A stretch of DNA of 40,747 nucleotides from assembly GCA_023229725.1 (NCBI GenBank), contig JALNYR010000003.1:1-40747 (forward strand), in the 5' to 3' direction. A program made the position numbers and the translations under genes. The DNA is from Dehalococcoidia bacterium (GTDB lineage: Bacteria; Chloroflexota; Dehalococcoidia; GIF9; AB-539-J10). A model generated the notes under the pieces. That model searched no databases. It saw nothing but the letters and a program-made list of their open reading frames with translations, and had not been told where the DNA came from. How positions within the stretch are numbered: position 1 is the first letter of the stretch; the number at the start of each line of letters is the position of its first letter. Below are positions 4,294 to 33,995 of this stretch, in pieces.

Positions 4294-4967
4294 GCTCCTT
4301 TCGTCAGCGCCCGATCCAGGCGCTCGAGTTCCGTTGCGAGCGTTCGCAGGTGGTCTCCCGACGTGCGGGCGCGCGGCTTGTTGCCAAGTGCACGCTCAAG
4401 GCGCTCAATCCCGTCCGTAAGCTCGCGCGGAAGAGTGACGATGCGGCTCTCGCGCGTAGCTCTCGCCTTCACTTCATCCAACTGTTCCTGCATCTCTGTT
4501 CGTACCGAATCAATCGACGCTTCCGGGTTCGAGGCGAAGTTCATCGTCACCGGAGAGATCTCGATGAGACGGACCTCCGTGAAGTGAACCACCTTGCGCC
4601 CGTCTGTTTCGACGATCTTCTGTCTCACGGGCTGGAATCGGTGGCTCATCTGCGTGATGTACTGCTTCTTCATCCCGCTGTGAACTTCACGCCCACGCTG
4701 AACGTCAAGGTCGAGATCTCCCGCCTCGACGAACGGTCCGCGCTCTTGCTCTTGCAGACGCGCCAGGCCGATCGGTTCCTCCGGTCGGTGCATCCACACG
4801 ATTGGGAAGCCCTTCTTGACGTGATCCTTGAGCGTTTTCCTGAAGGAACCGGCGTCGAATACAGACTCGTACGTATCCTCGACGCCATAGACCGACGGGA
4901 ACCCGGTAAACCTGCCGGGCACGTCGTCCTCTGCGATGTCAAACGCCCGTACGTACGTATCGTTCAT
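4290..4967 (-). CDS. HK97-type prohead maturation protease
   Basis: FTGFPSVYGVED, GSFRKTL, WMH..PIG, QMSHRF and LIEISPVTMNFASNPEA motifs; ATGA overlap with the portal stop. Confidence 0.9.
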   Translation of the reverse strand: MNDTYVRAFDIAEDDVPGRFTGFPSVYGVEDTYESVFDAGSFRKTLKDHVKKGFPIVWMHRPEEPIGLARLQEQERGPFVEAGDLDLDVQRGREVHSGMKKQYITQMSHRFQPVRQKIVETDGRKVVHFTEVRLIEISPVTMNFASNPEASIDSVRTEMQEQLDEVKARATRESRIVTLPRELTDGIERLERALGNKPRARTSGDHLRTLATELERLDRALTKGA

Positions 4968-7018
4968 GGTTTCTCCGTGTGGTAGATCTCGTTGCATCGG
5001 CAGTTGATGATCTCCCCGGCGTCCCCATCTGGATCGCCTGGGGCCATCAGCCCGTTCGAGTACGGCTCATCCATCGGTCTGACCTCGCCGTTCATCGCCG
5101 CGTGGCTGTCGCGCGTGCGTGCGTCAAGCGACGAGACCCACTCCTTGAAGAGCAGGACTCCGCTCTGCGCCGCTGCCTCGTGCTGCGCGAATCCGGCGAG
5201 CGAGTGAACCTCAGTCCGCGCGATCGTGAACGCCCGCGAGGTATCGAACGCTACACCGCTCTCTCCGTACCACTCGCGATACTTACCTTTGAGGGAGCGT
5301 GCGATGTCATCTGTCGGGACGTTCTCTTGCAGCCCCGCGGCGACGATCTTCCGCACCTCGCGCTTCGTCGAATCGAATACCGCCGTAATCTGCTCGGCGA
5401 CGTACTTCGACAGGAAGCGCAGGATGTTCGGCGCGCCGACGTTGAAGCGGACACTGCGCTCTGGAATCGGCTTGTCTACTGCATCCCCGAAGTGCTCAAT
5501 CACGCTCAGGGAGACGGCCTTGATCGCGCGCTCGTACGCCACGCGCCCCTCGTCGATCTCGCTGTCCAGGTCAAGCTTCCCCTTCGTGAACGCGGCAAGG
5601 ACTCGCTTCTCTTCGTCTTGGAACAGCTCGCGGACACGCGCGGCGATGGCTCGCTCAAACGCCTTCTTCTCTCCATCCTTCGCGCGCCAGAATGCACCGA
5701 TGGCGTTCTTGTCCGAGAGGTTCACCATGCGCGAGCGGCCACCGATGCTGACGCTTTCCCCGTCCGTGTCGAACACCGAATCAGACCCAAGAGGAATCAT
5801 GGTGGCCTGGATGTACGCCTGCTCGCTGACATCCTCCGCTGAGAAGCCAAGGCCAAGGCGCTCGTTGATCGCACGCGGCGAGATATGCAGATTCGTTGCG
5901 AAGATCCGCGCCGTCTCCGCGGCAGACTTGATCGCTTCCACTACAGCCGGCGTGCGCGAGAGGTCAAAGTCGAGATAGCTGCCGTCGGACAGGCCAAGCC
6001 GCGGCACGAATTGCATATTCCAGGTATCGCGCGTGTCTCGCAATCGCGGAATGGTGACCGTGTTCCACAGGAAGACCTCAGCCGCACGCTTGTTCTCGTA
6101 CGTCGTATCCTTCAGCCCAATCAAGCACGGGTCTACCTCGCACGCGGCGCAGATCGCATCGTTCGACAGGCCGAGCGACTGAATGAAGTCCACCTCTGCT
6201 GGCGTCAGCATGAACGGCTGGAACTTGAGAGTCGAACGCGCAATGAGGAGCTTGCCGACGTTCTCCGCGCCCGCCTTGTTCGCGGCGATGTCCGCCTTGA
6301 GGGCATCGTACACGTCCTTGCCCATGTCGCCAGAGAGGAGCCCGGACGGGCGCACGACCTGTTGCATGGACTTTGCCTGCGCGGTCTGCACGGCGTTGCC
6401 GGTATCGACCGCTTTCCCCGCGGCGCGAATCGTCCCGAGCCCGTAGACCTCCGAGCCGATGTCTACCTGCTGGATGTGGACTACCTCATCCTGCGCGTAC
6501 ACAGTCTCCTGCCCGCCGACGAGGTACGTGTACGACCGTCCGAGGAGAGACGTAGCTTGAATCAGGATGTTCTCTACGCGCAACGGCCATACAGCATCGC
6601 CGCCTGCATTCGAGTGGTAGAGCACGTAATCGCCCGCGGTGTCTGCGTAGAGCGAGTCGAGATAGAGGATCTTCGTCCATGTCTGGTAGGGATTCGGGGA
6701 GTGAAGGAACTTCACGAGTCGGTGGTTCGGATCCGTGACGGTCTCGACATCACCGCCGTGGCCCGGCCTACGCACGACCCACGGCACGCTCGAGAACATG
6801 CGAGCCTTGAGGGTGAACGCGCGCCACACTACCCAGTGCGAACGCAGCCCCTCGTTGATGGCGGTTTGCACGCTCCAGTCACGCCAGGGCTGCGAGGACT
6901 GCATCCAGTCCGGAATGACCGTCGCCTTCTCGGCTGGCCGGCGAAGCGTAGATGCGACGGCACGAGCAAAGCCGTCTTCCAACGCCGTTGCGATGAACCC
7001 CCTCATCGTTGAGGCCAC
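4964..7018 (-). CDS. Portal protein fused to a C-terminal MuF/SPP1 gp7-like minor head domain
   Basis: HK97-type portal N-terminus (FLHSPNPYQT, GDYVLY, WPLR, YGLG, PSGLL) and RAFTIARTE...KEWVSSLDARTRDSH...INCRC at the C-terminus. Start codon uncertain because there is no SD. Confidence 0.88.
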   Translation of the reverse strand: MASTMRGFIATALEDGFARAVASTLRRPAEKATVIPDWMQSSQPWRDWSVQTAINEGLRSHWVVWRAFTLKARMFSSVPWVVRRPGHGGDVETVTDPNHRLVKFLHSPNPYQTWTKILYLDSLYADTAGDYVLYHSNAGGDAVWPLRVENILIQATSLLGRSYTYLVGGQETVYAQDEVVHIQQVDIGSEVYGLGTIRAAGKAVDTGNAVQTAQAKSMQQVVRPSGLLSGDMGKDVYDALKADIAANKAGAENVGKLLIARSTLKFQPFMLTPAEVDFIQSLGLSNDAICAACEVDPCLIGLKDTTYENKRAAEVFLWNTVTIPRLRDTRDTWNMQFVPRLGLSDGSYLDFDLSRTPAVVEAIKSAAETARIFATNLHISPRAINERLGLGFSAEDVSEQAYIQATMIPLGSDSVFDTDGESVSIGGRSRMVNLSDKNAIGAFWRAKDGEKKAFERAIAARVRELFQDEEKRVLAAFTKGKLDLDSEIDEGRVAYERAIKAVSLSVIEHFGDAVDKPIPERSVRFNVGAPNILRFLSKYVAEQITAVFDSTKREVRKIVAAGLQENVPTDDIARSLKGKYREWYGESGVAFDTSRAFTIARTEVHSLAGFAQHEAAAQSGVLLFKEWVSSLDARTRDSHAAMNGEVRPMDEPYSNGLMAPGDPDGDAGEIINCRCNEIYHTEKP

Positions 7019-8437: not shown

Positions 8438-9718
8438 TCAGTAGTCCACAAATTCCGCATCCCCGCCCTCCGCGAGCATCAGCTCGTGGCACCCCCATAC
8501 CATACTATCCATGCGATCTGGGCTGAATCCCATATCTTTTACTGTAGATCCCTGGACCCATGACACCATCTGATCCTCGAGGTCAGGGAACACGCCGACA
8601 TGGTAGCCGCGCCCTTGCTCGTACAGCGCCGCCACGGGCTCCGCGCGCCGGGACTTTCCTTGCGATGCCCATACGTCATCGTAGGCGACGTTTGGGTCTC
8701 GGACGTGGATCACGTCTTCAACCATGTCTCCGCCGTTGTTGCGCTCCCCGACCACTCTATCTGCCCGCCACTGGTAGTACGCCTCGATTGCCCGGGTGCC
8801 CCATTCGTCTGGCGTGTAGGTGCCACTGAGATCATCCAGGACCACGAAGCGGTCACCGCTCTTGCCAGCAACGATGATGCCCGTCTCGATGCCCTTGGAT
8901 TCCGCCTCGTCACCGGAGGATGCTGCCGGGTCCACTGCGACCACGATACGCTCGCACTCCGGCGCGCCGTCGAGACGCTTGATCATCTCCATGTTCCAGA
9001 GTGCGCCCGCCGCTACGTCCAGCCACATGCCCAACAGGAAGCGTTGTCGGTTGCGCTGCGACAGCCGCCCAAGCACGTCCTCGATGTAGCCTTCAGGCAA
9101 GTTCTCCCGGTTGTCTTCCGGGTTCATCAGCATCATGCCGTAGTCGTCCGGCTTGGCGAGCATTGCCTTTGAGGATGGGTCGCGCTTCTCGACGAACTTG
9201 AGGTAGGTCCAGTGCTTCTTGTTGGGCGGGTTGCAATCGAAGAGCGCCTTGTTGACGAGCCCGGAGTTCTCCGCGAGCCGGGTGAGCGCCATCTCTACCG
9301 CGGCGTGCGTGATCTGGCTGCACTCGTTGAAGAAGATCGTGCTCCACTCGGTACCGAGGATCTTCTCGGTGCGGTCCTTCTCGTCGAGGCCGCCGATCCA
9401 GATCTCCGATCCGTTTGGGAACGTGATGAAGTAGTCCGAGTTGTTCCATTTCACCTTGACGTCGGGGCAGACGAGAGCGATCACCTTGGGCAGCGTCTCG
9501 TGCCAGATGCTGGCCTTGGCGTGGTTGAAGCGGAAGCGGAGGATCAGGTGACGCGACTTGGCCTTGAGCGCCCGCACGACGAGCGCGTAGAGGATGATGA
9601 ACGTCTTGCCGGACCGCGAGCCGCCGTAGAGCATGACGTTGCGCGCCGGACTCGCTAGGAGGTCAATCGCCCCGCGCTGCTTCGCGGTCTTCTCAAACGC
9701 GGGCGATGGATTCGGCAT
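8438..9718 (-). CDS. terL: Terminase large subunit
   Basis: Walker A GGSRSGKT, Walker B-like IFFNE, coupling motif DCNPP, and RNase H-like nuclease (AVDPA, ERNNGG, PDRMDS). Confidence 0.95.
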   Translation of the reverse strand: MPNPSPAFEKTAKQRGAIDLLASPARNVMLYGGSRSGKTFIILYALVVRALKAKSRHLILRFRFNHAKASIWHETLPKVIALVCPDVKVKWNNSDYFITFPNGSEIWIGGLDEKDRTEKILGTEWSTIFFNECSQITHAAVEMALTRLAENSGLVNKALFDCNPPNKKHWTYLKFVEKRDPSSKAMLAKPDDYGMMLMNPEDNRENLPEGYIEDVLGRLSQRNRQRFLLGMWLDVAAGALWNMEMIKRLDGAPECERIVVAVDPAASSGDEAESKGIETGIIVAGKSGDRFVVLDDLSGTYTPDEWGTRAIEAYYQWRADRVVGERNNGGDMVEDVIHVRDPNVAYDDVWASQGKSRRAEPVAALYEQGRGYHVGVFPDLEDQMVSWVQGSTVKDMGFSPDRMDSMVWGCHELMLAEGGDAEFVDY

Positions 9719-10667
9719 ACGCCATCACGAACTCCGCCGCGACTTGCGGCACGATAGCATTGCCCGCTCCCCGCAAGAGGCCCACTCTGCCGGGAACCCC
9801 ATGAGCCAAAGGCTGAATCGTGGGTTCAATGCGCCGCGCTTTTCCGTCGGCACAAGGGATGAGGATGCTGCCGCCCCAGGGAGACGGTCGTCGCCCTGAG
9901 ATGGTCCGCCCTTCGGGCCGTCCTGTTGGCATGGCGTGGGCCAACCGACAAGATCCACCGTCCTCCGGCTGCTGTCGTTGTTCCCCGCCTCGTTGTAGCC
10001 GTTCTGTGCCGGAGTCCCGGCCATCGGTGAGGGCCATCCCGCCATCTGCGCGGCAATCGCAATCGGCATCCCCGCACCGTTCCCGTTGTAGCCCTTGGCC
10101 TTCAGCGTCTCTGCCCGCGCCCGCCAACTCTCCAGACTCTCGCCGTCGTTCATCGCGTTCGCATCCGGTGTAGGCCACCCAGTAGAGCCGCTGCCGGATG
10201 TGCGGCGCGCCGACGCCCGCAGCGCACAAATCTGCGGCCCCGACTCCATATCCCATCGCTTCCAGGTCAGCGCGTACTCCGGCGATCCATCCTCGCCCAG
10301 CCTTGCTCGCAACCTGTTCTCCAAAGACGACTGGAGGGCGGCACTCCGCGATGAGGCGTCGGAGCTCGGGCCACAGGTGACGCTCGTCTTTATCTCCGCG
10401 TCCTTTGCCTGCGACGGAGAATGGCTGGCAGGGACAAGATCCGGTCCAAACAGGCTCATCATCAGGCCATCCGGCAAGGCGCAGGGCGTAACTCCATCCA
10501 CCAATGCCTGCGAAGAAGTGGCATTGGGAGAATCCGAGAAGATCGCTCGGTCGGACGTCCGCAATGCTTCTCTCGTCCACCTCGCCATCAGCTATCAGTC
10601 CTTCCTTGATGAGTTCCCGCAGCCACGCGCAGACCTTCGGGTCGTTGTCGTTGTAGTAGGCTGTCAC
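9693..10667 (-). CDS. C5 cytosine DNA methyltransferase, alpha-like chain (motifs I, IV, VI, VIII, X)
   Basis: FFAGIGG, GSCPCQPFS, EQV, HIRQR and LRGAGNAIVPQV are present; there is no motif IX in this frame. Confidence 0.88.
   Translation of the reverse strand: MTAYYNDNDPKVCAWLRELIKEGLIADGEVDERSIADVRPSDLLGFSQCHFFAGIGGWSYALRLAGWPDDEPVWTGSCPCQPFSVAGKGRGDKDERHLWPELRRLIAECRPPVVFGEQVASKAGRGWIAGVRADLEAMGYGVGAADLCAAGVGAPHIRQRLYWVAYTGCERDERRRESGELAGAGRDAEGQGLQRERCGDADCDCRADGGMALTDGRDSGTERLQRGGEQRQQPEDGGSCRLAHAMPTGRPEGRTISGRRPSPWGGSILIPCADGKARRIEPTIQPLAHGVPGRVGLLRGAGNAIVPQVAAEFVMAYAESIARV
9725..10462 (-). CDS. Nested alternative-frame ORF: methyltransferase beta-like chain (TRD-like WP(T/S)P repeats plus motif IX)
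   Basis: Frame is open from 10588 to 9725 inside the MTase gene; three GWP(T/S)P units and LNPRFSLWLMGFPAEW. Start uncertain (ATG 10462, 10459 or 10588). Confidence 0.72.
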   Translation of the reverse strand: MMSLFGPDLVPASHSPSQAKDAEIKTSVTCGPSSDASSRSAALQSSLENRLRARLGEDGSPEYALTWKRWDMESGPQICALRASARRTSGSGSTGWPTPDANAMNDGESLESWRARAETLKAKGYNGNGAGMPIAIAAQMAGWPSPMAGTPAQNGYNEAGNNDSSRRTVDLVGWPTPCQQDGPKGGPSQGDDRLPGAAASSSLVPTEKRGALNPRFSLWLMGFPAEWASCGERAMLSCRKSRRSS

Positions 10668-10789
10668 GACTTGCCAACGTAGACGCCATGCTCGGGCTTC
10701 GTAATCAGACAGGAGAGCGGATAGGAGAGCGCGACGAGCGACACGCCCGCCGCCGTTGGCTTCCAGAAGAAGAGGATGGAGTCTTTCAC
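10664..10789 (-). CDS. Small coupling ORF (41 aa, MKDSILFFWK...), absent from the ORF track
   Basis: GTGA overlaps with both the terS stop and the MTase start. Confidence 0.5.
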   Translation of the reverse strand: MKDSILFFWKPTAAGVSLVALSYPLSCLITKPEHGVYVGKS

Positions 10790-11226
10790 AGCTTCTCGTC
10801 CTGCTTGTCGAAGCGGATCAGGATGGGGCCGCCGTCCGCTCCCGTGTGCTCTACCGTGTCACGCCAGCCGTAGTGATTCTTGAGTGCGAAGATGTGCCCC
10901 TGCCCGTAGCCGAGCCCGCGGAGCATTCGCTCTTCGAGATTCGCCTCGATTCGAAGGCGGGCCTGAAAGATGATGTCTGCCTTCTCTGCGTCGGGGCCGC
11001 CTGGATCTTTCTCCCCCCGCAACATGATGGCTTTGAGTGTCTCGGGACCCGTGCCGCAGACGACGGCAAGCCGCGTGAACGTGTACGGGAGCGGATCGGG
11101 GACTTCCATGACCAAGCCCTTGCCGACGTGAGCCTTTGTGGTGTGCGCGTCGCACATGGCGAAGTAGCCCTCGACGCAGCCGCGAAGCTCATCGGCGGTC
11201 GTGAAGTTCGCCTTGGTCTTTGGCAT
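10786..11226 (-). CDS. terS: Terminase small subunit
   Basis: ELRGCVEGYF...PYTFTRLA...IFALKNHYGWRD..EHTGADGGPI; lies upstream of terL; SD GGGAG. Confidence 0.85.
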   Translation of the reverse strand: MPKTKANFTTADELRGCVEGYFAMCDAHTTKAHVGKGLVMEVPDPLPYTFTRLAVVCGTGPETLKAIMLRGEKDPGGPDAEKADIIFQARLRIEANLEERMLRGLGYGQGHIFALKNHYGWRDTVEHTGADGGPILIRFDKQDEKL

Positions 11227-11396
11227 CGCTCCCTTCTGACTCTCCGAGTTGGCGCAACTGCTCACGATCGACGTTGGCCGGCTTCTTCTTCAACCAGTCG
11301 GCGCGGATCGCGTAGCAGGTCTTCGGCTTCGTGAAGCCCTTGATGCGTTCCATTCCCCTCCATCCCCTTGAGTTGAGCGAGGGGGAGGCCGGTGGC

Positions 11397-17556: not shown

Positions 17557-19755
17557 TCATGCGTCCGCCATCTCTTGGAACAGGGGTATATCTTCCACGG
17601 TCTCGGCGGCGCGGATGTTGCGGCACGCCGTCTCCCAGTAGGACCGCTTGAGTTCGCAGCCCCAGAAACGCCGCCCGAGCTTCACGGCCTGATAGCCCTC
17701 GGAGCCAATGCCGGCGAACGGAGAGAGCACGAGGTCTCCCTTGTTCGACCAGAGGCGGACGCACCGCTCGATCGTCTCGAGTTGGAGCGGGCAGATGTGC
17801 CGCTCGTCTTTCTCCTGAGTTCCTTCGCGGGCGTTGAGGGTTTCTGTCTCCTTGATGCCGTACCAGATCGGACGCGCCCACTCGATCCACTGGTCGTTCG
17901 TGATGTCCGGGTGAACTGGCGTGGCGTTGTCTCCCGGCTTGCGGAATAGGAGGATGTAGTCGGCAAGCGCCGGGCGGCTCCACGTCGAGTCCTTGCGAAG
18001 CTGGACGAAGAGGAGCCCCTTGCTGTGCGTTCGGATGGCCTGGGCTTGCGGGTCTTTGTCAATGCAGACCTCGCCGTGGTAGATCCATCCACGGTCAACG
18101 AATGCCCGGATCACGTCGCCGCGGAAGTCCTGCATCCCAATCACTCCGTGCGTGACCATCGTCGTCGTGAGTTGCTGGACGTGAACGGCGCAGTTCCGGC
18201 CGGGCATGGTGACGCGGAGCAGGTGATCGATGATGTACGTGAAGTGCTTGAAGAACTCGCTCTTCGTCTTCGAGTTGCCAAGGTCTCGCTCGCTCGGGCT
18301 GTACGTGTAGAGCGACTGGAACGGAGGAGAGAAGACGGACAGTCCAACGGAGTTGTCTGCTACGCGTGACATCGTCTCCACGGAATCCCCGAGGACCATC
18401 TCCCAGCCGTCGTGTCGCACCGTGTCTTCGGCGTACTCTGCCCGTGCTTGGCCGTCCCCGATCTCTGCCCGCTCGAACTCGCGGACGTGTTCCACAAGCC
18501 GCTCGCTCATCTTCGTCGCCTCCGCATCCTTGCGCTGTACGTTCTCCCAGACCTCGGACTCTTGCTTGCTGACAACGATCAGGGCTTCCACCGGATCCGT
18601 CTGCCCGAAGCGGTAGCACCGCCGAACGCACTGGTAGTAGGACTCCCACGAATCGGAGATCCCGATGAATGCCATGCGGTGGCAGTTCTGGAAGTTCATC
18701 CCGAATCCGCCGATCTTCGGCTTTGTCACGAGGACGCGGAGAGAACCGTCTTGGAACGCCTCGAAGGCCCGTTGCTTCTCTTCCAGCGAGTCGGACCCCT
18801 GGACGTTCACCGCGCCGGGAATCGCAGCGGCTACCGCGTCCGCTTCGGCATTGAGCCCGCACCATAGGATCCACTGATCGACGCTCGCGTTCACAATCGC
18901 TGCGGCCTTCGCTACCCTCTCCACCGCCGTCGCGCGCCGAACGCGAGACCGGTCAGCTATCCCTTTCATCCCAAGGTGGAAGAGGGCACCGTCCGTCACC
19001 GCGTCCGACTCTACCCAGAGCGGCGCGATGGTCAACGGAGGAAGATCGTACCCATCGTCCGAGTACCCAAGATCACTCGGCTTGCGCACGCTCATTCCCC
19101 AAGACGCAAGCCACTTGTAGAACGGCTCTTCGGCGTGCCCCTTGAGTCTCCATCCGTCCTGATCGTGGACGAAGAAGGCGGACAGCATCTCCGCGCGGGA
19201 CATGATCCCCAGGAACTCCGCGTGGTTCGCAATCTCCGCGATGTCATTCGGGGCCGGCGTCGCCGTACAGCACAGACGATACGGCGTCTCGGAGAACATC
19301 TCCGTGAGAAGCTTGCGCGTCTTCCCATCCAGGCTCTTGAGGATACTGGACTCGTCGAGAACGATCGACTGAAAGTCCTCCGCATCGAACGCCGTCACCA
19401 TCTCGTAGTTCGTGATGTTCACGCCGTTGGACAGATCGTCCCCTGAGCGCGTGTAGTAGACCGGTACGCCGATCTTCACTCCCTCGCACACAGTCTGCCG
19501 CGCTACGGATAGTGGGGCGACAATCAGACACCGTCCTCCGCTTAGTCTCGCCCATTCCAACTGCATAAACGTCTTGCCGAGCCCCGTGTCCGCGAAGATC
19601 GCCGCGCGCCCCTTGCGGATCGCCCATCGCGTGATGTCACGCTGAAACGGGAACAGCTTCTCGTGAATATCTTCCGCGCGGACATCTAGGCCGGCGTTGC
19701 GGACAACAGACGCCTTCCCTTCTAGAAACTCCGTGTACCCTAGAACCGAGCCCAT
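17557..19755 (-). CDS. SNF2-like SF2 helicase fused to a beta-class N4/N6 DNA methyltransferase
   Basis: Helicase motifs DTGLGKT, LDESS, TATP and QCVRRCYRFGQ; MTase motif IV SPPF precedes motif I SPFAGIGS, with HICPLQL between them. Confidence 0.88.
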   Translation of the reverse strand: MGSVLGYTEFLEGKASVVRNAGLDVRAEDIHEKLFPFQRDITRWAIRKGRAAIFADTGLGKTFMQLEWARLSGGRCLIVAPLSVARQTVCEGVKIGVPVYYTRSGDDLSNGVNITNYEMVTAFDAEDFQSIVLDESSILKSLDGKTRKLLTEMFSETPYRLCCTATPAPNDIAEIANHAEFLGIMSRAEMLSAFFVHDQDGWRLKGHAEEPFYKWLASWGMSVRKPSDLGYSDDGYDLPPLTIAPLWVESDAVTDGALFHLGMKGIADRSRVRRATAVERVAKAAAIVNASVDQWILWCGLNAEADAVAAAIPGAVNVQGSDSLEEKQRAFEAFQDGSLRVLVTKPKIGGFGMNFQNCHRMAFIGISDSWESYYQCVRRCYRFGQTDPVEALIVVSKQESEVWENVQRKDAEATKMSERLVEHVREFERAEIGDGQARAEYAEDTVRHDGWEMVLGDSVETMSRVADNSVGLSVFSPPFQSLYTYSPSERDLGNSKTKSEFFKHFTYIIDHLLRVTMPGRNCAVHVQQLTTTMVTHGVIGMQDFRGDVIRAFVDRGWIYHGEVCIDKDPQAQAIRTHSKGLLFVQLRKDSTWSRPALADYILLFRKPGDNATPVHPDITNDQWIEWARPIWYGIKETETLNAREGTQEKDERHICPLQLETIERCVRLWSNKGDLVLSPFAGIGSEGYQAVKLGRRFWGCELKRSYWETACRNIRAAETVEDIPLFQEMADA

Positions 19756-21896
19756 CCTACTGCCTCCTTTGACTCCTCTTGCGTGACCGCCGCCCATCGC
19801 CCCTTGTCGAACCGCTCGACGAGCGCCGGGTGCCTGTCGCGCAGCTTGTAGAGCGTCACGCGAACCGTTTCCTGCCCCGCCCCCATCTGCTCGGCCAACT
19901 CAGCAACGGACATCTTTCCAGACTCCTTGAGCGCGCGGAGGATGCGGTCCGTGAGCGGCATCATCCCGGTAGCCGCGGCGAGCTCCTTCACGCTGTGGGG
20001 GGTGACGAGCGTTGCCCCTTCGCCGAAGTGGAATCGCAGCCCGATCGGTCGCTCGCGCCGGCCATAGTTCATCTTCTTATGGAACAGTCCTACCTCAACG
20101 GAATCTGCATCGTCAGAATCATCACGGCGCGCCTCCCAGATCGAGCGCGCGAGCGCCCCGAAGAACATGTTACCATAGACAGTTCTCCCACTGCTCGGAG
20201 CATTCTTCGCGTTGTGCGCCAGAATCAGCGACGAGACCCCGAGCGATCGAAGCGCCGTGAAGAACTCCATCGGAGGCTGGCTATCGTTGAGATTTCCCAG
20301 TCCACACGCAGGGCCTAACGAATCGATGATGACGAACTCAGATTCTCTCTCACGAATCTCTGCCTTGATCGCGTCTACATCATCCATCAAAGAGCGCTTC
20401 CCCTTTCGGTAAGCGATATGAGCCGGCGGGAGTTCCATCCCAACGCGCAGGGCATACAACCTGGACGCCAGTGCATCCCGCTCGCCCTCCCAGTCTAGGT
20501 AGATGGGGTTACGAAGCGTCTTGCGCACCTCCATCTCCAGGATCCTCTGAGGGGGCAAGCCGATGAGGTAAATCAGGAGGGCAGAGATATAGCTCTTCGT
20601 TGCTTCTGGATCTCCGAATAGGATCGTCGGGTGCTTGTAGAGCACGAGCGGCCAGATGGCGTATTCGGCGGGAGGCGCTTCAACGAGCGTATCAATCTCT
20701 TCTGTCTCTTCTCCCTGCTGTATAAACCGCGTGACCTCCTCGCAGAGATCCTCGATCATCCCGTCCCAGTTCAGTTCCGGCAGCTTCTTCTTGAGATCGT
20801 TTGCCAGTTCCGTGCGGGACCGGAGCGCCGTGAAGGTGAACTGCGCCGAACGCAGCGCGCGCGCCATGCCTGGAAGAGTCGTCTCGATCGTGAGGTGCCC
20901 GCCGATGCGTCCGTCCGAGTGCTCCTTGAGAGTCTTCGCCGTCGCGCGGATTCCTCTCGAAACCCATTCCACGCAGACGGATCGGTCCTCGCAGGTGATG
21001 ATCGGCGCGGTCGGCTCTTCGTCCATCGCCTCAGCGAGAGGACCAGTTGGCTCGCCTTGCCCAGAGTTCGGCCCCGCGGGGTAGCGTTGCCACACGTCGG
21101 CAACCATCGCCTCCGGTTCCTCGTCGGTGTACGCCGGCTGGCAGGCGGCGAAGGCGGCGCACGCCAGGGTGATAGCCTCCGGTTGCGCTACAACTGCCTG
21201 TGAACGTAGGTGGCACACGTAGCGGTAGAGTTCGGCGTGACGTTTCCCGGCCGGGATGCCAGCGAAGACCGCCGTAGGGTCTACTCGATCGAGCGTAGTG
21301 CCGTTTCCTTGCCCGCGTTTGGGTGCGCCGCACATCCACGAGGGTAGCTCGGCGAGTTGGACGGTCTCCGGGCGACTCGACGCCTCCCATTCGTAGGTCC
21401 TCCCAGAGATGTGCGCCGATCGTGGCGCTATTACGTATCCACCTTCACCACGCAGGTCGATCCCTTCGCCTAGCTTGCCAGCGGAGTTCGCAACCTCCGC
21501 GTCTGAGTGGAAGTAGAAGTGACGCCCACCGCCGCCCGTGATGACCGTCGGCGTGTCCGGTAGCTTTCCGTGGTCGGCTTCGAGCTCGGCCAGACTCTCG
21601 TCGCCGCCGTGTCCCGCGTCAATGTCCAGCACCACGAGCCCGAGCGATGCCTTGCCGCACGCTATCCCGATGTTCGCACTCGGGTACTTGTTCCACCACG
21701 CGCGAACAGACCCCTCGAAACGCGAGGCTTGCTTGACTCCGTTCGGGACTACCTGTCCGATCGGATGCTTACCAGGTGAGCCGCACGCGGGATTGCCGCA
21801 AGTACACGCGCCGTCCTTGATCGTATGCGCGGGAAAGACAGCCCATCCACGCTTGGCATACCAGAGCGCGGCCTGTAGATTCGTGAAGTCAGCCAA
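19740..21896 (-). CDS. Bifunctional primase/polymerase (Prim-Pol) + RecA-like (AAA_25-type) helicase + C-terminal wHTH
   Basis: GWAVFP, CTCGNPAC..PGKHP, NIGIACG, LDID, TGGGGRHFYF and IDLRGEGGYVIAP; Walker A-like GDPEATKS, YLDWE, IIDSL and LAH. TTG start with GGAGG SD. Confidence 0.9.
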   Translation of the reverse strand: MADFTNLQAALWYAKRGWAVFPAHTIKDGACTCGNPACGSPGKHPIGQVVPNGVKQASRFEGSVRAWWNKYPSANIGIACGKASLGLVVLDIDAGHGGDESLAELEADHGKLPDTPTVITGGGGRHFYFHSDAEVANSAGKLGEGIDLRGEGGYVIAPRSAHISGRTYEWEASSRPETVQLAELPSWMCGAPKRGQGNGTTLDRVDPTAVFAGIPAGKRHAELYRYVCHLRSQAVVAQPEAITLACAAFAACQPAYTDEEPEAMVADVWQRYPAGPNSGQGEPTGPLAEAMDEEPTAPIITCEDRSVCVEWVSRGIRATAKTLKEHSDGRIGGHLTIETTLPGMARALRSAQFTFTALRSRTELANDLKKKLPELNWDGMIEDLCEEVTRFIQQGEETEEIDTLVEAPPAEYAIWPLVLYKHPTILFGDPEATKSYISALLIYLIGLPPQRILEMEVRKTLRNPIYLDWEGERDALASRLYALRVGMELPPAHIAYRKGKRSLMDDVDAIKAEIRERESEFVIIDSLGPACGLGNLNDSQPPMEFFTALRSLGVSSLILAHNAKNAPSSGRTVYGNMFFGALARSIWEARRDDSDDADSVEVGLFHKKMNYGRRERPIGLRFHFGEGATLVTPHSVKELAAATGMMPLTDRILRALKESGKMSVAELAEQMGAGQETVRVTLYKLRDRHPALVERFDKGRWAAVTQEESKEAVGWARF

Positions 21897-27143: not shown

Positions 27144-29120
27144 CTATGTCGTGAACGTGATCTTTCGAGTCGCCCCACCGATGACGACCGTGATTTCCCC
27201 CGCCCCGAGCGCGCCGCCGGTCGTCACCCACGCGGTGACCTGCATCGGAGAACTTCCGCCAATGTCAAAGTACAGATCGTCATAGGCGTAGAGGTAGAGG
27301 TCTCCGCGTTGCGCCTCTACAGTTACGTCCGTGTAGCCTTTGAGGCTCACGTTCTCCGTCAGCAGTAGGTAAGACGAGTTCGCCACGGTGCCGTCCGTCG
27401 AGTACCCGAGCCATTCGTCGTTGTCAATGTTCAGGCAGTGAGGGTAGGCGTCCGTTCCGCCGCGGAAGTCGGTGCAGTTGTAGAGCGCGTGGCCGCTCAT
27501 GTTGAGGTCTGCGGCGATCGTTCCGGTGATGTCCCCGACCACGATGAGTTGCGTGCCCGTCCACTTCATGTAGTTGGTCGCGTCGCCGATCGTGAACATG
27601 GACGCGCCGGCAGCGTAGCCGAGCCAGAATCCTGGGTCCGTGTCAGACGGTCCGGTCTTGCCCTGGCAGATGGCGCTACCCGTCGTCTCAGCGAGCGTGA
27701 TCGTCTGAGCGTCGATCGTTCCTGCGGTGATCTTGTCTGCGGAGAGCGAGGCGATTTTCCCGCTGGTCACGGCTAGGTCTACGATCTGCAACGTGTCCAC
27801 GATTCCCGTAGTCGCGGAGATGTCCAGCGCCGAAACCTTGATCGAGAGCGTGCCCAGCACGGGGTTGAAGTCGAACCAGTACGTGCCGTCTGAGGCGTAG
27901 AGCCTGCCAGTGGAATCCATGTAGGTCTTCCACCCGCTATCGTAGTAGCCGAGGTAGTCGGTCGAGACGTAGAGCCCCGCGCCGCTCGGTGCGCCGGGCA
28001 ACGCGCCGGGCGTTCCGCCGGGGATGTTCGAGACGTCGATGTTCGAGAGGTCGTTGACGTTGACCTGTTCGGCGGCAGAGAAGTCGAACTCCTCGCCCTT
28101 GTTGGCAAGCTCTAGCGTCACGTCGCCGGGCGCGCCGGTCACGTCGGACTTCGTGAGGGACATCACGCGCACGGACACGTCGATTCCGAGGATTGAATCC
28201 GTCACGGTCACGAGCGCGCCGATGGTGAAGGTGTCGATCGACTCGTTTGTGATGCGCACGAGGTCCGCCGCGGAGATCGTGTACGTCATCTTCGGTTCGG
28301 CGAGCGTGACGAGCAGGTCAACCGCCGCGGCGTAGAGTTGGGCCTCGGTCGTGTAGCGTTGGTCCGTCCAGTGGCGCGTGAGCGTGCCGTACGTGGCGAC
28401 GTTGCACGTGATGTAAGCGAGGCCACCGGGCTCTACCGTCGTAATCCCGATCTGATCGACTCCGCTTCCTGCGCCATGCGGATAGAGCTTCGTGACGAGG
28501 TCGGAGTAGTCGGCTTCGCGTGCAAGCTCTTTGGCGTTGCGCCCGTAGTCGATGTAGGCCGTCGGGGTGCTGGGCGGTGCAATGAGGTTCAGCGTCCACG
28601 GGTAGGTCGCCGTGCTGAAGGTGAAGAAGTATCCGGCCTGGAAGCGTCCCGGCACGTCGAGTACCGCGCGCAGTAGCTTCGTGCCGCGCGCCCATTCGTA
28701 GAGGAAGTCCTCTGAGAAGTCGCAGGTTCCGAGCGTCCAGCGCGCGACTGCCTGGGATGCGAGGATGGCTGTCAGCGCCGCGGAGGTTCCCGCCACCGCG
28801 CCCGCGTAGGTGGTCGCTGCGAACTCATCATCGTTCAGCGTGGCGAGCGCGTGCTCGCAGTCGAATCGAACGTAGTCGTGGCCCTTCGTCTCCTTGATGA
28901 TGCGGAAGAGCTCGATGCGCGTGTCACCGTTCCACAGTTCGGCGAATCGCTGCGCCGTGATCTCGGACAGGTGCTCGTCGTCGAGCGGGACGGAGAACGA
29001 TGCGGTGCCGACTTCGTTGGCGCGGAGCGTGTAGGAGATGCCGAAGGCGCGCGGCAGGTACGCGGCCTTGTTCATTGCGGCGTCATAGATGATGACGGGC
29101 GCGGTCACTGGTGCGGTCAT
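27144..29120 (-). CDS. Tal/baseplate hub (prophage tail endopeptidase-like) with C-terminal extension
   Basis: N.VGTASFSVP, IDYGRNAKELAR..DYSDLVTKLYPHG, P.MTYTISAADL; later IASLSADKITAGTID fibre-type repeat. Confidence 0.85.
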   Translation of the reverse strand: MTAPVTAPVIIYDAAMNKAAYLPRAFGISYTLRANEVGTASFSVPLDDEHLSEITAQRFAELWNGDTRIELFRIIKETKGHDYVRFDCEHALATLNDDEFAATTYAGAVAGTSAALTAILASQAVARWTLGTCDFSEDFLYEWARGTKLLRAVLDVPGRFQAGYFFTFSTATYPWTLNLIAPPSTPTAYIDYGRNAKELAREADYSDLVTKLYPHGAGSGVDQIGITTVEPGGLAYITCNVATYGTLTRHWTDQRYTTEAQLYAAAVDLLVTLAEPKMTYTISAADLVRITNESIDTFTIGALVTVTDSILGIDVSVRVMSLTKSDVTGAPGDVTLELANKGEEFDFSAAEQVNVNDLSNIDVSNIPGGTPGALPGAPSGAGLYVSTDYLGYYDSGWKTYMDSTGRLYASDGTYWFDFNPVLGTLSIKVSALDISATTGIVDTLQIVDLAVTSGKIASLSADKITAGTIDAQTITLAETTGSAICQGKTGPSDTDPGFWLGYAAGASMFTIGDATNYMKWTGTQLIVVGDITGTIAADLNMSGHALYNCTDFRGGTDAYPHCLNIDNDEWLGYSTDGTVANSSYLLLTENVSLKGYTDVTVEAQRGDLYLYAYDDLYFDIGGSSPMQVTAWVTTGGALGAGEITVVIGGATRKITFTT

Positions 29121-30283
29121 AGCTCGCGCTCCTTGTGGCGAATGGTGAGGGCGGCGGTGCGCGCTGCTTCTGCGTCATCCCAGGTGAGAGTGTTCACGCC
29201 CGGGTAGACGCTGGGGAAGTCTCCCGAGTGGTTGTAGCGCACGTCAGATCCGTTCAGTTTGACGGTCCGCTTGTCGCAGTCGATCTCTAGGAAGTCACCC
29301 GGTGCGAGGGTGCCCGCGTACGATAGCGCCTGGATGATGTAGAGGAGAGCCGACGCGGAGAGAGAAGACGCGGACGTGATGGAGACGGTTGCCGTGATGA
29401 ACTTGTCGCCCACCGCGCCGACGTTGCCCGCCGCGATGATGGCCGACTCCGCGCCGACCACCTGCGCGACGCGCCACCCCGCCGCTTGAAGAATGGAGGA
29501 AACGGACATCGCAGATGTAGCGAGGATCGGCATACCGCCCGCCGCAATCAGCGAGGCGATGGCCTGCGCAGACATCTCCCCGAACTTGATCTGCGGAGGA
29601 TTTGCGAACAGCGATGCGACTGCCGCGAGCGCCGCTTGGCCGTTGAAGACACGCAGAGGGTCGGCGGTGATCGTCGCGGAGACGGAAGCGGACAGCGTTC
29701 CGGAGTAGATCGTTCCCCACGTTACCGTCAGATATGTTGCCTGTCCGCTGTAATGGTAGCAGCCCAGTTCCTCCTCTCCAGAAGGTGCGGTTCCCGCGAT
29801 CTCTCGGTTGTTGCGGAGCATGAAGCGCGTGTAGCCTTCTGGAACAATCCATGATCTGCCGGTCGAGTTGAGTGTCAGAGTATTCCATGCGCTTAGGACG
29901 ATGTCCGCACTCGCAAGCGAGCCGCCGTCCCCGCTGTACAAGGAGTAGTTGTAGTCTTCGAGAGCAATCGGGTAATACGGGCGCGTCCCGCCCCCAGTCT
30001 GCACAACAACGCTCCACGCCGTGTCCGCAGAGAGCGAGTTTGCGTACAGATGAATTGCCGCGCCTGTGATGTTGGACCCCACAGGGATCACGCTCGTATC
30101 GAACACGAGCGGCATTCGCGTGATGTTGTACGTTGTCCCAAAGTTGCGCTGCCCGCACAGCGCGAAGGTTGTTAGCAGCACGTCAGCCGATGCTGCTGCG
30201 CGGAGCGTCGTGTACGACGCTAGAGGTCCTTTATACAGTGATTTGTACGTACCGAGCGCCGTGAAGTTCGCCACTACACCCAC
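29117..30283 (-). CDS. Minor tail protein: N-terminal beta (carbohydrate-binding-like) domain, Ala-rich stalk and Dit-C-like domain
   Basis: R..LVFDTS.IP.GS.ITGA.I.LY N-terminal domain; ends YAGTLAPGDFLEID..TVKLNG..GDFP.VYPGVNTL. Alternative start at 30274. Confidence 0.75.
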   Translation of the reverse strand: MGVVANFTALGTYKSLYKGPLASYTTLRAAASADVLLTTFALCGQRNFGTTYNITRMPLVFDTSVIPVGSNITGAAIHLYANSLSADTAWSVVVQTGGGTRPYYPIALEDYNYSLYSGDGGSLASADIVLSAWNTLTLNSTGRSWIVPEGYTRFMLRNNREIAGTAPSGEEELGCYHYSGQATYLTVTWGTIYSGTLSASVSATITADPLRVFNGQAALAAVASLFANPPQIKFGEMSAQAIASLIAAGGMPILATSAMSVSSILQAAGWRVAQVVGAESAIIAAGNVGAVGDKFITATVSITSASSLSASALLYIIQALSYAGTLAPGDFLEIDCDKRTVKLNGSDVRYNHSGDFPSVYPGVNTLTWDDAEAARTAALTIRHKEREL

Positions 30284-31095
30284 CTCGGCTTATGATCCAG
30301 GCGCACGTCGGCGGTGCGGGATGCGTCATCATCGTCCCAAGTGACCGTGTTGGCTCCCGGTTGCAGGTGCGGGAAGACGCCGGTGAAGTAGCGCGTGTAG
30401 TTCACGCCGTTCAGCGTAACCGTCATCGTGTCGGTGTCAATCTCCACCACGTCACCAGGAACAAGCGTGCCCGTGTAGCCTAGCGCGCGAACGATGTAGA
30501 CAAGGCCGGAGATTGCGGACGCCGTGCTCGCCGTGATCGTGCAGGCACCTCTTTTGACGCGGATTCCGAATGCCGACAGAGCCGCCACGACATCGATTGC
30601 AGCCTCGCCTGGATTCACCTTGCACGCGAAGCCGGTGAGCGCGGAGACGATTGCGAGCCCCGCGATGCCCGACGCCAGCATGTCCCCATCTGCGCTCGCC
30701 GCCGAATGCGCCACGGCCTGCATGATGCCCGACATCGCCGCGTCAGGGTCGGCGGAGATCCCCGGCTCGACGAGGATGCTCAGGATTCCCGGCTGCACGC
30801 GGGTAGCCCCTGCGATCAACTGAGAGGCCCCAGCAAAGGCGGCGATCCCTCGCAGGGTAGAATCCCCCTTCGCAACCACCGCGGAGGACGTGCCAGCTGC
30901 CAGGATTCCGTCCATGATGGCCTGCGCCACTGCCGCCAGAGTCACCACGCCAGAGAGAGACGCCGCGCCAGAGAACACCCCGACGCCGTTTATCACCACG
31001 GCGGGGCTCACGGTACACGACAGGATCCCGTAGTAAACGGCACCCGAACTCACCGCGCCGTACATCGTCGTGCCGTACTGCTCGTTGCCGAACAG
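30274..31095 (-). CDS. Minor tail protein: Ala/Gly-rich stalk and Dit-C-like domain, probable CTG start
   Basis: AGGAGG-5 nt-CTG at 31095 is in frame with ATG 31065; the C-terminus is paralogous to the next gene. Confidence 0.72.
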   Translation of the reverse strand: MFGNEQYGTTMYGAVSSGAVYYGILSCTVSPAVVINGVGVFSGAASLSGVVTLAAVAQAIMDGILAAGTSSAVVAKGDSTLRGIAAFAGASQLIAGATRVQPGILSILVEPGISADPDAAMSGIMQAVAHSAASADGDMLASGIAGLAIVSALTGFACKVNPGEAAIDVVAALSAFGIRVKRGACTITASTASAISGLVYIVRALGYTGTLVPGDVVEIDTDTMTVTLNGVNYTRYFTGVFPHLQPGANTVTWDDDDASRTADVRLDHKPRWV

Positions 31096-33419: not shown

Positions 33420-33995
33420 CTAGGTCTTGAGTGCCGAGAACGTGAGAGTGAAGCCGGTGATGTCCCCGGCCCCGTCGTTCCTGATGCGAATGCGCGGAGG
33501 CGTTGCGTAGCCGCCGCTGTTGGTTACCGCAATCTCTTGCCCGTCTGCCGTGACCGTCGCCGAAGTCGTCACCGTGGATCCGTAGGCGTAGGGGTCGAAT
33601 GCCGTGAGGGGCAGCGTGATCTTCCCAGAGGCCCCGCCAAGGCGCTCAATCGGCAGGTTGCCAAGATAGCGCACGGTGTACGTCCGCGTGGGTTCCTTGG
33701 TGAATACAAGCGAGCAGTCCACCGGACGCCCGTCTGAGTCCAACAGCACCGCGGACACCGCACGCACCGCCGCCGCCAGCGTCTCTGGCGTAGTCGCCCC
33801 GACGAGCACGCACTCCAAGACGAAGACGCGCGCGGATAGGTCGGCCCCGAAGTCCACCGCGCCCTGCCGCCCCGGGACCTCAAGCGTCCTATCCCGCGTC
33901 GCCGGCAGTCCATCGTCCGTGTGCGAGCGCAGGAGTTGCAGACCGAGCGTCGTATCCGCCACGCCGCCCAACGTGAAGCGATGCACGGTTGCCAC
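33420..33995 (-). CDS. Distal tail protein (Dit), N-terminal portion
   Basis: Follows the TMP; EVPGRQGA.DFG..L.AR, L.F..EP.R.Y, PLTAFDPYAYG and V.NSG...TPP motifs. Confidence 0.82.
   Translation of the reverse strand: MATVHRFTLGGVADTTLGLQLLRSHTDDGLPATRDRTLEVPGRQGAVDFGADLSARVFVLECVLVGATTPETLAAAVRAVSAVLLDSDGRPVDCSLVFTKEPTRTYTVRYLGNLPIERLGGASGKITLPLTAFDPYAYGSTVTTSATVTADGQEIAVTNSGGYATPPRIRIRNDGAGDITGFTLTFSALKT

Follow-up and report, generated by a model that had tools for sequence, protein, structure and literature searches.

The stretch of DNA analyzed here (40,747 nucleotides (nt), referred to as the window) is contig JALNYR010000003.1 of the Dehalococcoidia bacterium assembly GCA_023229725.1, and represents the entire contig C165 of a 2.69-Mb genome bin. 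On its minus strand lies a putative phage DNA cytosine-5 methyltransferase (C5-methyltransferase) gene that can be read in two frames, one encoding a 324-amino-acid (aa) chain, referred to as alpha, and the other a second chain, referred to as beta, nested within it in the +1 frame (Table 1). The original prediction, made from the sequence alone, had described the two frames as one enzyme split between two chains. This dual-frame reading is supported by our comparisons, in which the nested frame is kept open in homologues. The II-III-I-IV order of motifs in alpha, the shuffling of modules in beta, and the commonness of the family had been missed.

The alpha chain matches PF00145 (residues 75–167, E-value 2.6e-14) and phrog_363 (residues 1–319, E-value 6e-78), and aligns to M.HhaI across motifs IV–VIII. 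Its motifs are labeled as in the C5-methyltransferase family. Motifs I, IV, VI, VIII, and X, which had been predicted for this frame, were all located, and the PF00145-type residues are all present, namely the FxGxG of motif I, the catalytic Pro-Cys of motif IV, the Glu of motif VI, the RxR of motif VIII, and the GN of motif X (LRGAGNAIVPQVAAEF, residues 298–313). Their order is II-III-I-IV-VI-VIII-filler-X. A canonical I-to-X order on a single chain was not found, with motif IX on beta and a short I-to-IV spacing: the distance between motif I and the catalytic Pro-Cys seen in the window recurs in 77 of the 79 genomic homologues described below, versus 63–72 residues in eight canonical enzymes. 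Ahead of motif I, residues 1–48 matched a motif II-III profile of the eight canonical enzymes (hhalign E-value 2.4e-4, versus at least 0.035 for 11 control windows). A search of the whole PDB with a profile of this N-terminal segment gave no methyltransferase, and its assignment as motif II/III is therefore moderately supported. According to the part of PMC5944983 that treats them, the natural circular permutants in REBASE are all cut within the variable region; the search criterion there was motif X before motif I, which would miss a II-III-I-IV order. Between motifs VIII and X, alpha had been predicted to hold Arg/Gly filler in place of the target-recognition domain (TRD) and motif IX, a description that fits residues 166–262 (18 Gly and 17 Arg among 97 residues) and fails for residues 264–298, which are conserved unlike the filler.

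The beta chain matches phrog_1008 (E-value 1e-28), and the parts claimed for the nested frame were found in it, i.e., three GWP(T/S)P units (GWPTP, GWPSP, and GWPTP at 10180, 10039, and 9946) and a motif IX-like segment (LNPRFSLWLMGFPAEW at 9829–9782). When the window was scanned with a pattern for motif IX derived from four other enzymes, this beta site came first of 52,516 six-frame positions, with a score of 22 (mean -21, standard deviation 7.6); the best alpha-frame site scored 2. The conserved N-terminal domain of beta is proposed to be the alpha-binding part. The overlap of the two open frames agrees with the more than 700 nt originally claimed (Table 1).

Table 1. Features of the two-frame methyltransferase gene and its immediate neighbors in the window.
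Feature	Position	Strand	Remarks
Alpha chain, C5-methyltransferase	9693..10667	-	324 aa, 975 bases, GTG start; predicted catalytic and S-adenosylmethionine (SAM)-binding large domain
Alpha motif II/III-like segment, residues 4–38	10554..10658	-	Sits ahead of motif I; hhalign
Alpha motif I, HFFAGIGG, residues 50–57	10497..10520	-	27 residues ahead of catalytic PCQ
Alpha motif IV, GSCPCQPFS, residues 76–84, catalytic Cys80	10416..10442	-	Aligned to M.HhaI; P79 and C80 invariant in 58 sequences
Alpha motif VI, FGEQV, residues 115–119	10311..10325	-	Glu117 invariant in 58 sequences; Gln replaces the usual Asn (EQV, not ENV)
Alpha motif VIII, PHIRQRLY, residues 155–162	10182..10205	-	R158 and R160 invariant in 58 sequences
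Alpha filler, residues 166–262	9882..10172	-	Unconserved read-through of the beta modules, stop-free; column conservation 0.19–0.36
Alpha conserved C-terminal block, W..CxDGKxRxxEP, and motif X (GNAIV)	9729..9878	-	Column conservation
Beta chain	9725..10588	-	287 aa, +1 relative to alpha, wholly nested, 864-nt overlap; predicted start at ATG 10588 behind AAGGAAGGA
Beta conserved N-terminal domain (LQSSLENRL, LTWKRW, LRASARRTS)	10181..10411	-	Overlies alpha motifs V–VIII
Module 1 (WPTPDANAMND..., 47 aa)	10037..10177	-	Type shared with L087, L108, and L109; a near-identical phage has another type here
Module 2 (WPSPMAGTPAQ..., 31 aa)	9944..10036	-	Among the commonest types, 25 of 322 units
Module 3 (WPTPCQQDGP..., ~32 aa, end approximate)	9848..9943	-	Type shared with L004, L131, and P0017
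Beta motif IX-like segment	9782..9829	-	Motif IX pattern scan
Terminase small subunit (terS)	10786..11265	-	Upstream neighbor of alpha; Pfam and PHROGs
41-codon hydrophobic open reading frame (ORF)	10664..10789	-	GTGA overlap with the terS stop and with the alpha start; from sequence
Terminase large subunit (terL)	8438..9718	-	Downstream neighbor; start overlaps the final 26 nt of alpha

Homologues were collected in two sets. The viral set comprised the best 80 of 91 IMG/VR loci by alpha match, from which five loci without an anchor and five duplicates were removed to leave 70; the genomic set comprised the best 80 of 563 genome loci, searched with alpha motifs only, of which 79 were anchored. 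From motif I to motif X, alpha is open in 69/70 viral loci and the +1 frame in 66/70 (5.2 expected), and the genomic set gave 78/79 and 77/79 (6.1 expected), whereas the +2 frame is open in none of either set; these counts come from related homologues and are not independent, and the ranking by alpha match favors an intact alpha, both of which weigh against the reading that we prefer. Stops thus do not build up in the nested frame of homologues, and the repeat units keep both frames open, as had been predicted, the alpha filler being stop-free in 69/70 viral and 78/79 genomic homologues. The motif IX pattern occurs in the +1 frame in 72/79 genomic loci, and neither motif IX nor a WPTP unit occurs in the alpha frame of any of the 79. 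The copies at L041, L096, L054, and L184 have a stop or frame break in alpha and a beta frame that is still open.

A chance open frame in GC-rich DNA, or an assembly error, might be suspected from the GC content of 62% and from the long shadow ORFs that are common in the window. Shuffling the synonymous codons of alpha left the +1 frame open in 0/200 shuffles (3.2 stops expected). Shuffling the beta codons left the middle of alpha open in 2% of cases for the window and predicts it to be open in only 3.9 of 65 loci, so both frames appear to be maintained. Negative controls, i.e., three single-chain plasmid enzymes and MtbP of phage SPbeta, have closed +1 frames with many stops (the plasmid matches had been considered as kin of M.EcoHK31I, and are single-chain NgoMIV-type enzymes). 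Further, sequencing run X2 from another study matches 9400–9948 with 0 differences and 10165–10682 with 5 differences (99% identical), without gaps, which speaks against an assembly slip; this evidence consists of contigs, the two matching pieces of which are not shown joined. The shuffle controls, the 149 homologues, and the independent run refute an artifact, whose remaining chance is negligible. By these comparisons, the two-frame gene is real and conserved, with selection acting on each of its frames.

A two-frame gene could still yield a single polypeptide through programmed frameshifting, which would follow alpha through motif VIII, the +1 frame for the modules and motif IX, and alpha again for motif X, or would use a single shift complemented by full-length alpha; the movement of modules between frames in Mycobacterium phage Seagreen gp68 and in L108 would fit such a scheme. 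The start of beta was analyzed in 130 of 160 loci (those with intact alpha, distinct, and without N). Stops in the +1 frame are common until 11 codons ahead of motif I (three segments gave 99, 67, and 16 loci), and beyond that point amount to 0, 2, 1, 0, and 0, versus 19.8, 29.1, 7.3, 77.5, and 53.4 expected (codons 43–70 gave the 0/130 versus 77.5). An ATG is present in the open stretch ahead of motif I in 126/131 loci, and a Shine-Dalgarno-like word (GGAG, AGGA, or GAGG) lies upstream of the ATG in 91 loci, versus a shuffle mean of 22 and maximum of 30, a gap that is in part attributable to stop avoidance itself. The window does not have the commonest beta ATG, and has one 23 codons ahead of motif I, after AAGGAAGGA. 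Given the conserved ATG before motif I, a separate start is more plausible than frameshifting. A shift of frame after motif VIII accounts for neither the point where the +1 frame opens, nor the ATG, nor the Shine-Dalgarno-like word, nor the constraint on beta over alpha codons 101–163, where the +1 frame is clearly constrained at the amino acid level (beta identity 0.52–0.58, close to that of alpha, with a drop in third-position change). It is also at odds with a +1 frame open over the entire catalytic core (68/70 viral and 78/79 genomic loci) and with the conservation of beta over alpha motifs V–VIII, and would not need the alpha filler to be stop-free, yet it is. We consider frameshifting very unlikely.

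Alternatively, beta may be a separate overprinted protein, such as a regulator or anti-defense factor, with alpha acting alone or with a host partner. Consistent with this, beta has no match to a curated family or structure: PDB sequence searches with beta and with a 58-sequence beta profile returned no methyltransferase, Pfam gave only weak matches on 58 betas, each in a single member, and an Atlas search with beta returned only unnamed viral clusters. A search for forms of 659–2000 aa found 11 proteins in which gene callers had joined beta to downstream helicase, nuclease, primase, or polymerase genes, with PF00145 in none, which is weak evidence. The beta frame of L013 and P0001–P0011 continues stop-free into such downstream genes. 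Against a separate protein, alpha is without motif IX and WPTP units throughout the 79 genomic homologues, the best motif IX match of the window lies in beta, and the units sit within the enzyme chain in Seagreen. Among 25 loci found with beta, 22 have a near full-length beta match, and all 22 also have alpha. We regard a separate beta as extremely unlikely, and the two chains very probably form one enzyme.

The WP(T/S)P units of beta behave as exchangeable modules. Among 65 open betas, we counted 160 units, 0–5 per chain with a median length of 36 aa, which fall into 89 types and 62 distinct strings; a larger set of 126 betas contains 322 units and 153 types. No type is duplicated within one chain (0/126 versus 6.0 expected, P 0.001), and where alpha cores are at least 85% identical, the module string differs in 40 of 41 pairs. 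Within module types, change is concentrated at the third codon position of the beta frame (0.415 versus 0.146 and 0.103), and protein identity over 215 pairs is 0.84 in the beta frame and 0.51 in the alpha frame. This substitution pattern indicates that the modules evolve under selection in the beta frame. An apparent exchange was seen in run X2, which has no cover at 9976–10103: its contig 10 departs from the window just past the WPTP of module 1 and enters a module type also present in L119, with new sequence that is open in both frames (junction and frames read by hand). The type of module 1 is also present in L108 and L109, which belong to a second two-frame clade. This clade (L108, L109, and L115) uses the same types of module, with its motifs in canonical order; at least seven units are present in L109, and in L108 the modules switch frame part-way.

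The nested layout has a precedent in M.EcoHK31I (E. coli HK31, YGGCCR), in which, according to the parts of PMC2836561 and PMC3404938 that describe it, motifs I–VIII, motif X, and the predicted TRD are on alpha and only motif IX is on beta; N-terminal deletions of its beta weaken association (PMC2836561). A primer from the supplement of PMC2836561 matched 33/33 bases in an E. coli gene (locus L112), which encodes a 309-aa alpha and a 176-aa +1 beta, with ends that agree with the published beta primers, and lies next to a restriction endonuclease gene. We refer to L112 as an M.EcoHK31I-type gene rather than as the HK31 gene itself. Both systems have two chains from one gene, a small chain nested in +1 with motif IX, and an outer chain with motifs I–VIII and X. 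However, the predicted TRD of M.EcoHK31I is on alpha, whereas in the phage enzyme the variable region of alpha is unconserved and selection lies in beta. Further, the beta of L112 overlies alpha codons 104–280, whereas the 287-aa phage beta begins from codon 27; L112 has the canonical order with 63 residues between motifs I and IV and no WPTP modules, whereas the phage enzyme has 27 residues and modules on beta; and L112 stands beside its endonuclease gene, whereas the phage gene is an orphan between terminase genes. A profile of 64 phage betas gave no match to the L112 beta (E-value 0.57). The phage gene thus shares the M.EcoHK31I layout and differs in TRD location, beta kinship, and cognate endonuclease. 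The precedent invoked by the original prediction stands for the two-chain nested layout, re-derived here on L112, and is a looser analogy than was implied, with the TRD on alpha there and a beta unrelated by profile. As M.EcoHK31I demonstrates, an enzyme of this sort can be completed by a nested +1 chain that bears motif IX.

Besides M.EcoHK31I, other enzymes resemble the phage gene in part. Bacillus temperate phages protect themselves with arrayed TRDs, as described in sections of PMC12707154. SPbeta MtbP (L117), one of the multispecific C5-methyltransferases of these phages (PMC12707154 and PMC8936443), is likewise an orphan phage enzyme with short tandem units ahead of motif IX and a proposed anti-restriction role. 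In our analysis, however, it is a single polypeptide in canonical order, its +1 frame is closed (41 stops), and its TRDs do not match the WPTP units. M.AquI, a natural two-chain enzyme encoded by two genes, carries motif IX and some of the variable region on its small chain; motif X is also on the small chain, versus on alpha in the phage enzyme, and the passage on it in PMC3404938 describes no nested frame. In Seagreen gp68 (L113:1359–2894), five homologous (W/L)PTP units, motif IX, and motif X follow motif VIII in the catalytic frame in a canonical order, with an additional short +1 ORF that has a beta-like start and two units. Paenibacillus phage DevRi gp56/gp57 (L115) has homologous units and a motif IX segment on a beta nested in +1, with both genes annotated and a canonical motif order.

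By DNA position, the tandem short units lie between motifs VIII and IX, as in the SPR, phi3T, and SPbeta enzymes. We infer that they are TRDs from this position, after motif VIII as in Seagreen gp68; matching of sequences does not bear this out, as no homology to characterized TRDs was found with SPbeta MtbP, the one multispecific enzyme tested. The conserved Thr of the units recalls the Thr-Leu of known TRDs. We think that the modules probably set the specificity of the enzyme, and lean slightly towards several independent targets. The two chains could instead carry modules that are not independent TRDs, giving one composite or relaxed specificity, or one working module plus a reservoir. The failure of the units to match SPbeta TRDs and the variation of module number from 0 to 5 in the main set would agree with this, and other phage 5-methylcytosine methyltransferases are described as having relaxed CC specificity, in a different family of ~700 aa (PMC5537653). 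It sits less well with discrete module types that are never duplicated per chain and keep their conservation in the beta frame wherever they stand in the string, which fits non-redundant functions, and we find it unlikely.

Several further points count against a two-chain enzyme with modular specificity. The motif IX of beta does not have the Glu and Arg normally present there; Pfam, NCBIfam, and the PDB gave no match for beta, and its Atlas model is poor (predicted template modeling score 0.23). Over alpha motif I, the +1 frame avoids stops but shows no amino acid constraint. No WPTP unit was found by pattern in 2/65 and 2/79 homologues, both frames of which are still kept, and neither the TRDs of SPbeta MtbP nor the EcoHK31I-type alpha is matched by a profile built from 197 units. 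Finally, engineered splits of M.MpeI and M.SssI, which place motif X with motifs I–VIII and the TRD with motif IX, are reported as inactive in the relevant part of PMC5944983. Because these splits are of the same kind, we propose that the N-terminal domain of beta serves as an added interface.

The window has the content of a tailed-phage genome (terminases, portal, protease, capsid, tail, RecT, exonuclease, and primase, all on the minus strand), and alpha is the sole PF00145 match in the whole bin. No restriction endonuclease family was found in 27 window ORFs (Pfam and PHROGs) or 44 ORFs (PHROGs only). In run X3, two contigs connect 9691 to 10664 via 19 other letters and represent a relative without the methyltransferase gene at the 5' end of terL, so the gene is considered accessory. 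The GTGA overlaps at both ends of the 41-codon ORF (no PHROG match) make translational coupling of terS, this ORF, and alpha possible. No relatives of the terminase turned up in a search of viral contigs, and a terminase like that of the window is absent from the flanks of all loci compared, so the terS-terL placement is not shown to be general. A promoter and terminator scan gave results at chance level. No RNA run carrying the gene was listed, and run X5, labeled RNA, is probably DNA of relatives. Palindromes of six bases are strongly avoided across the window, unlike in the rest of the bin (GGCGCC 0 versus 32 expected, GTCGAC 0 versus 14, CTGCAG 0 versus 12), a general avoidance that points to no particular target site. 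As to other genes, a 746-aa SNF2/DEAD-type helicase fused to an N6/N4 DNA (amino-)methyltransferase is encoded on the minus strand at 17557–19797, a second methyltransferase of the phage; the portal (4964–7018) carries a fused Mu F-like head morphogenesis domain; three genes for Dit-like distal tail proteins lie at 29117–31065 and 33420–33995; and no integrase was found among the window ORFs scanned.

Based on these observations, we suggest that the gene probably encodes an orphan, accessory phage C5-methyltransferase, made as two chains from one DNA stretch and with modular specificity. Translation of alpha would begin at the GTG at 10667, and that of beta separately at the ATG present inside alpha in the +1 frame. 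Alpha may then fold into the SAM-binding and catalytic large domain, with the filler looping out and kept open only to deliver motif X, and the N-terminal domain and motif IX of beta may bind alpha, so that beta contributes the small domain that reads the DNA. The WP(T/S)P modules, for which exchange was observed, would each act as one target-recognition unit, and recombination at the shared GWPTP-coding joints would add, remove, or swap modules, each of which must be stop-free in both frames. Several sites would thereby be methylated, as with the multispecific enzymes of Bacillus phages. The position between terS and terL would suggest late production, when progeny DNA could be marked against host restriction. 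The most likely role is late, anti-restriction methylation during infection, with which the avoidance of palindromes agrees, and module swapping probably changes which sites are protected from host restriction enzymes.

This gene has many relatives. Among isolated phages, 146 records match beta, 131 of them over at least 80% of its length. Both frames were read in K1ind2, epsilon15, PhiXhv-18, and N15, and have the same nesting, motif order, and modules; both ORFs are annotated in K1ind2 (ORF29/ORF28) and PhiXhv-18, and only alpha in N15 (gp58) and epsilon15 (cytosine methylase). The family corresponds to PHROG 363 (alpha) and PHROG 1008 (beta), which databases keep as separate “DNA methyltransferase” or “Mte8-like” entries. 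Among 8,000 scored candidates, 5,808 match the beta profile, and a Pfam family was found in none of 120 listed. Our literature search, which covered neither subscription papers nor REBASE, found the M.EcoHK31I precedent and no account of the phage family as a two-frame enzyme. With the nested two-chain layout already known from M.EcoHK31I, what seems to be new is that the nested chain is combined with modular specificity and with a catalytic chain whose motifs are permuted. In its widest form, which we put forward tentatively, this would be a very large unrecognized phage family with an out-of-frame, exchangeable, multi-specificity subunit of a motif-permuted C5-methyltransferase. Such a subunit would take its modules, which would be of a new type and ~36 residues long, from a common pool of at least 150. 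Recombination at the GWPTP joints would exchange them among near-identical phages as well as across distant clades; every module would be readable in both frames and would protect one additional site.

If this reading is correct, thousands of phage and prophage methyltransferases now annotated as one gene would be two-chain enzymes, the specificity part of which is invisible to annotation. Cloning or codon-optimizing the annotated frame alone would then destroy the second chain and lead to false “inactive” results. The locus would also be a natural case of two same-strand frames that overlap by 864 nt, both under selection and with modules still being exchanged, and the family would be a source of small modular DNA-recognition units.

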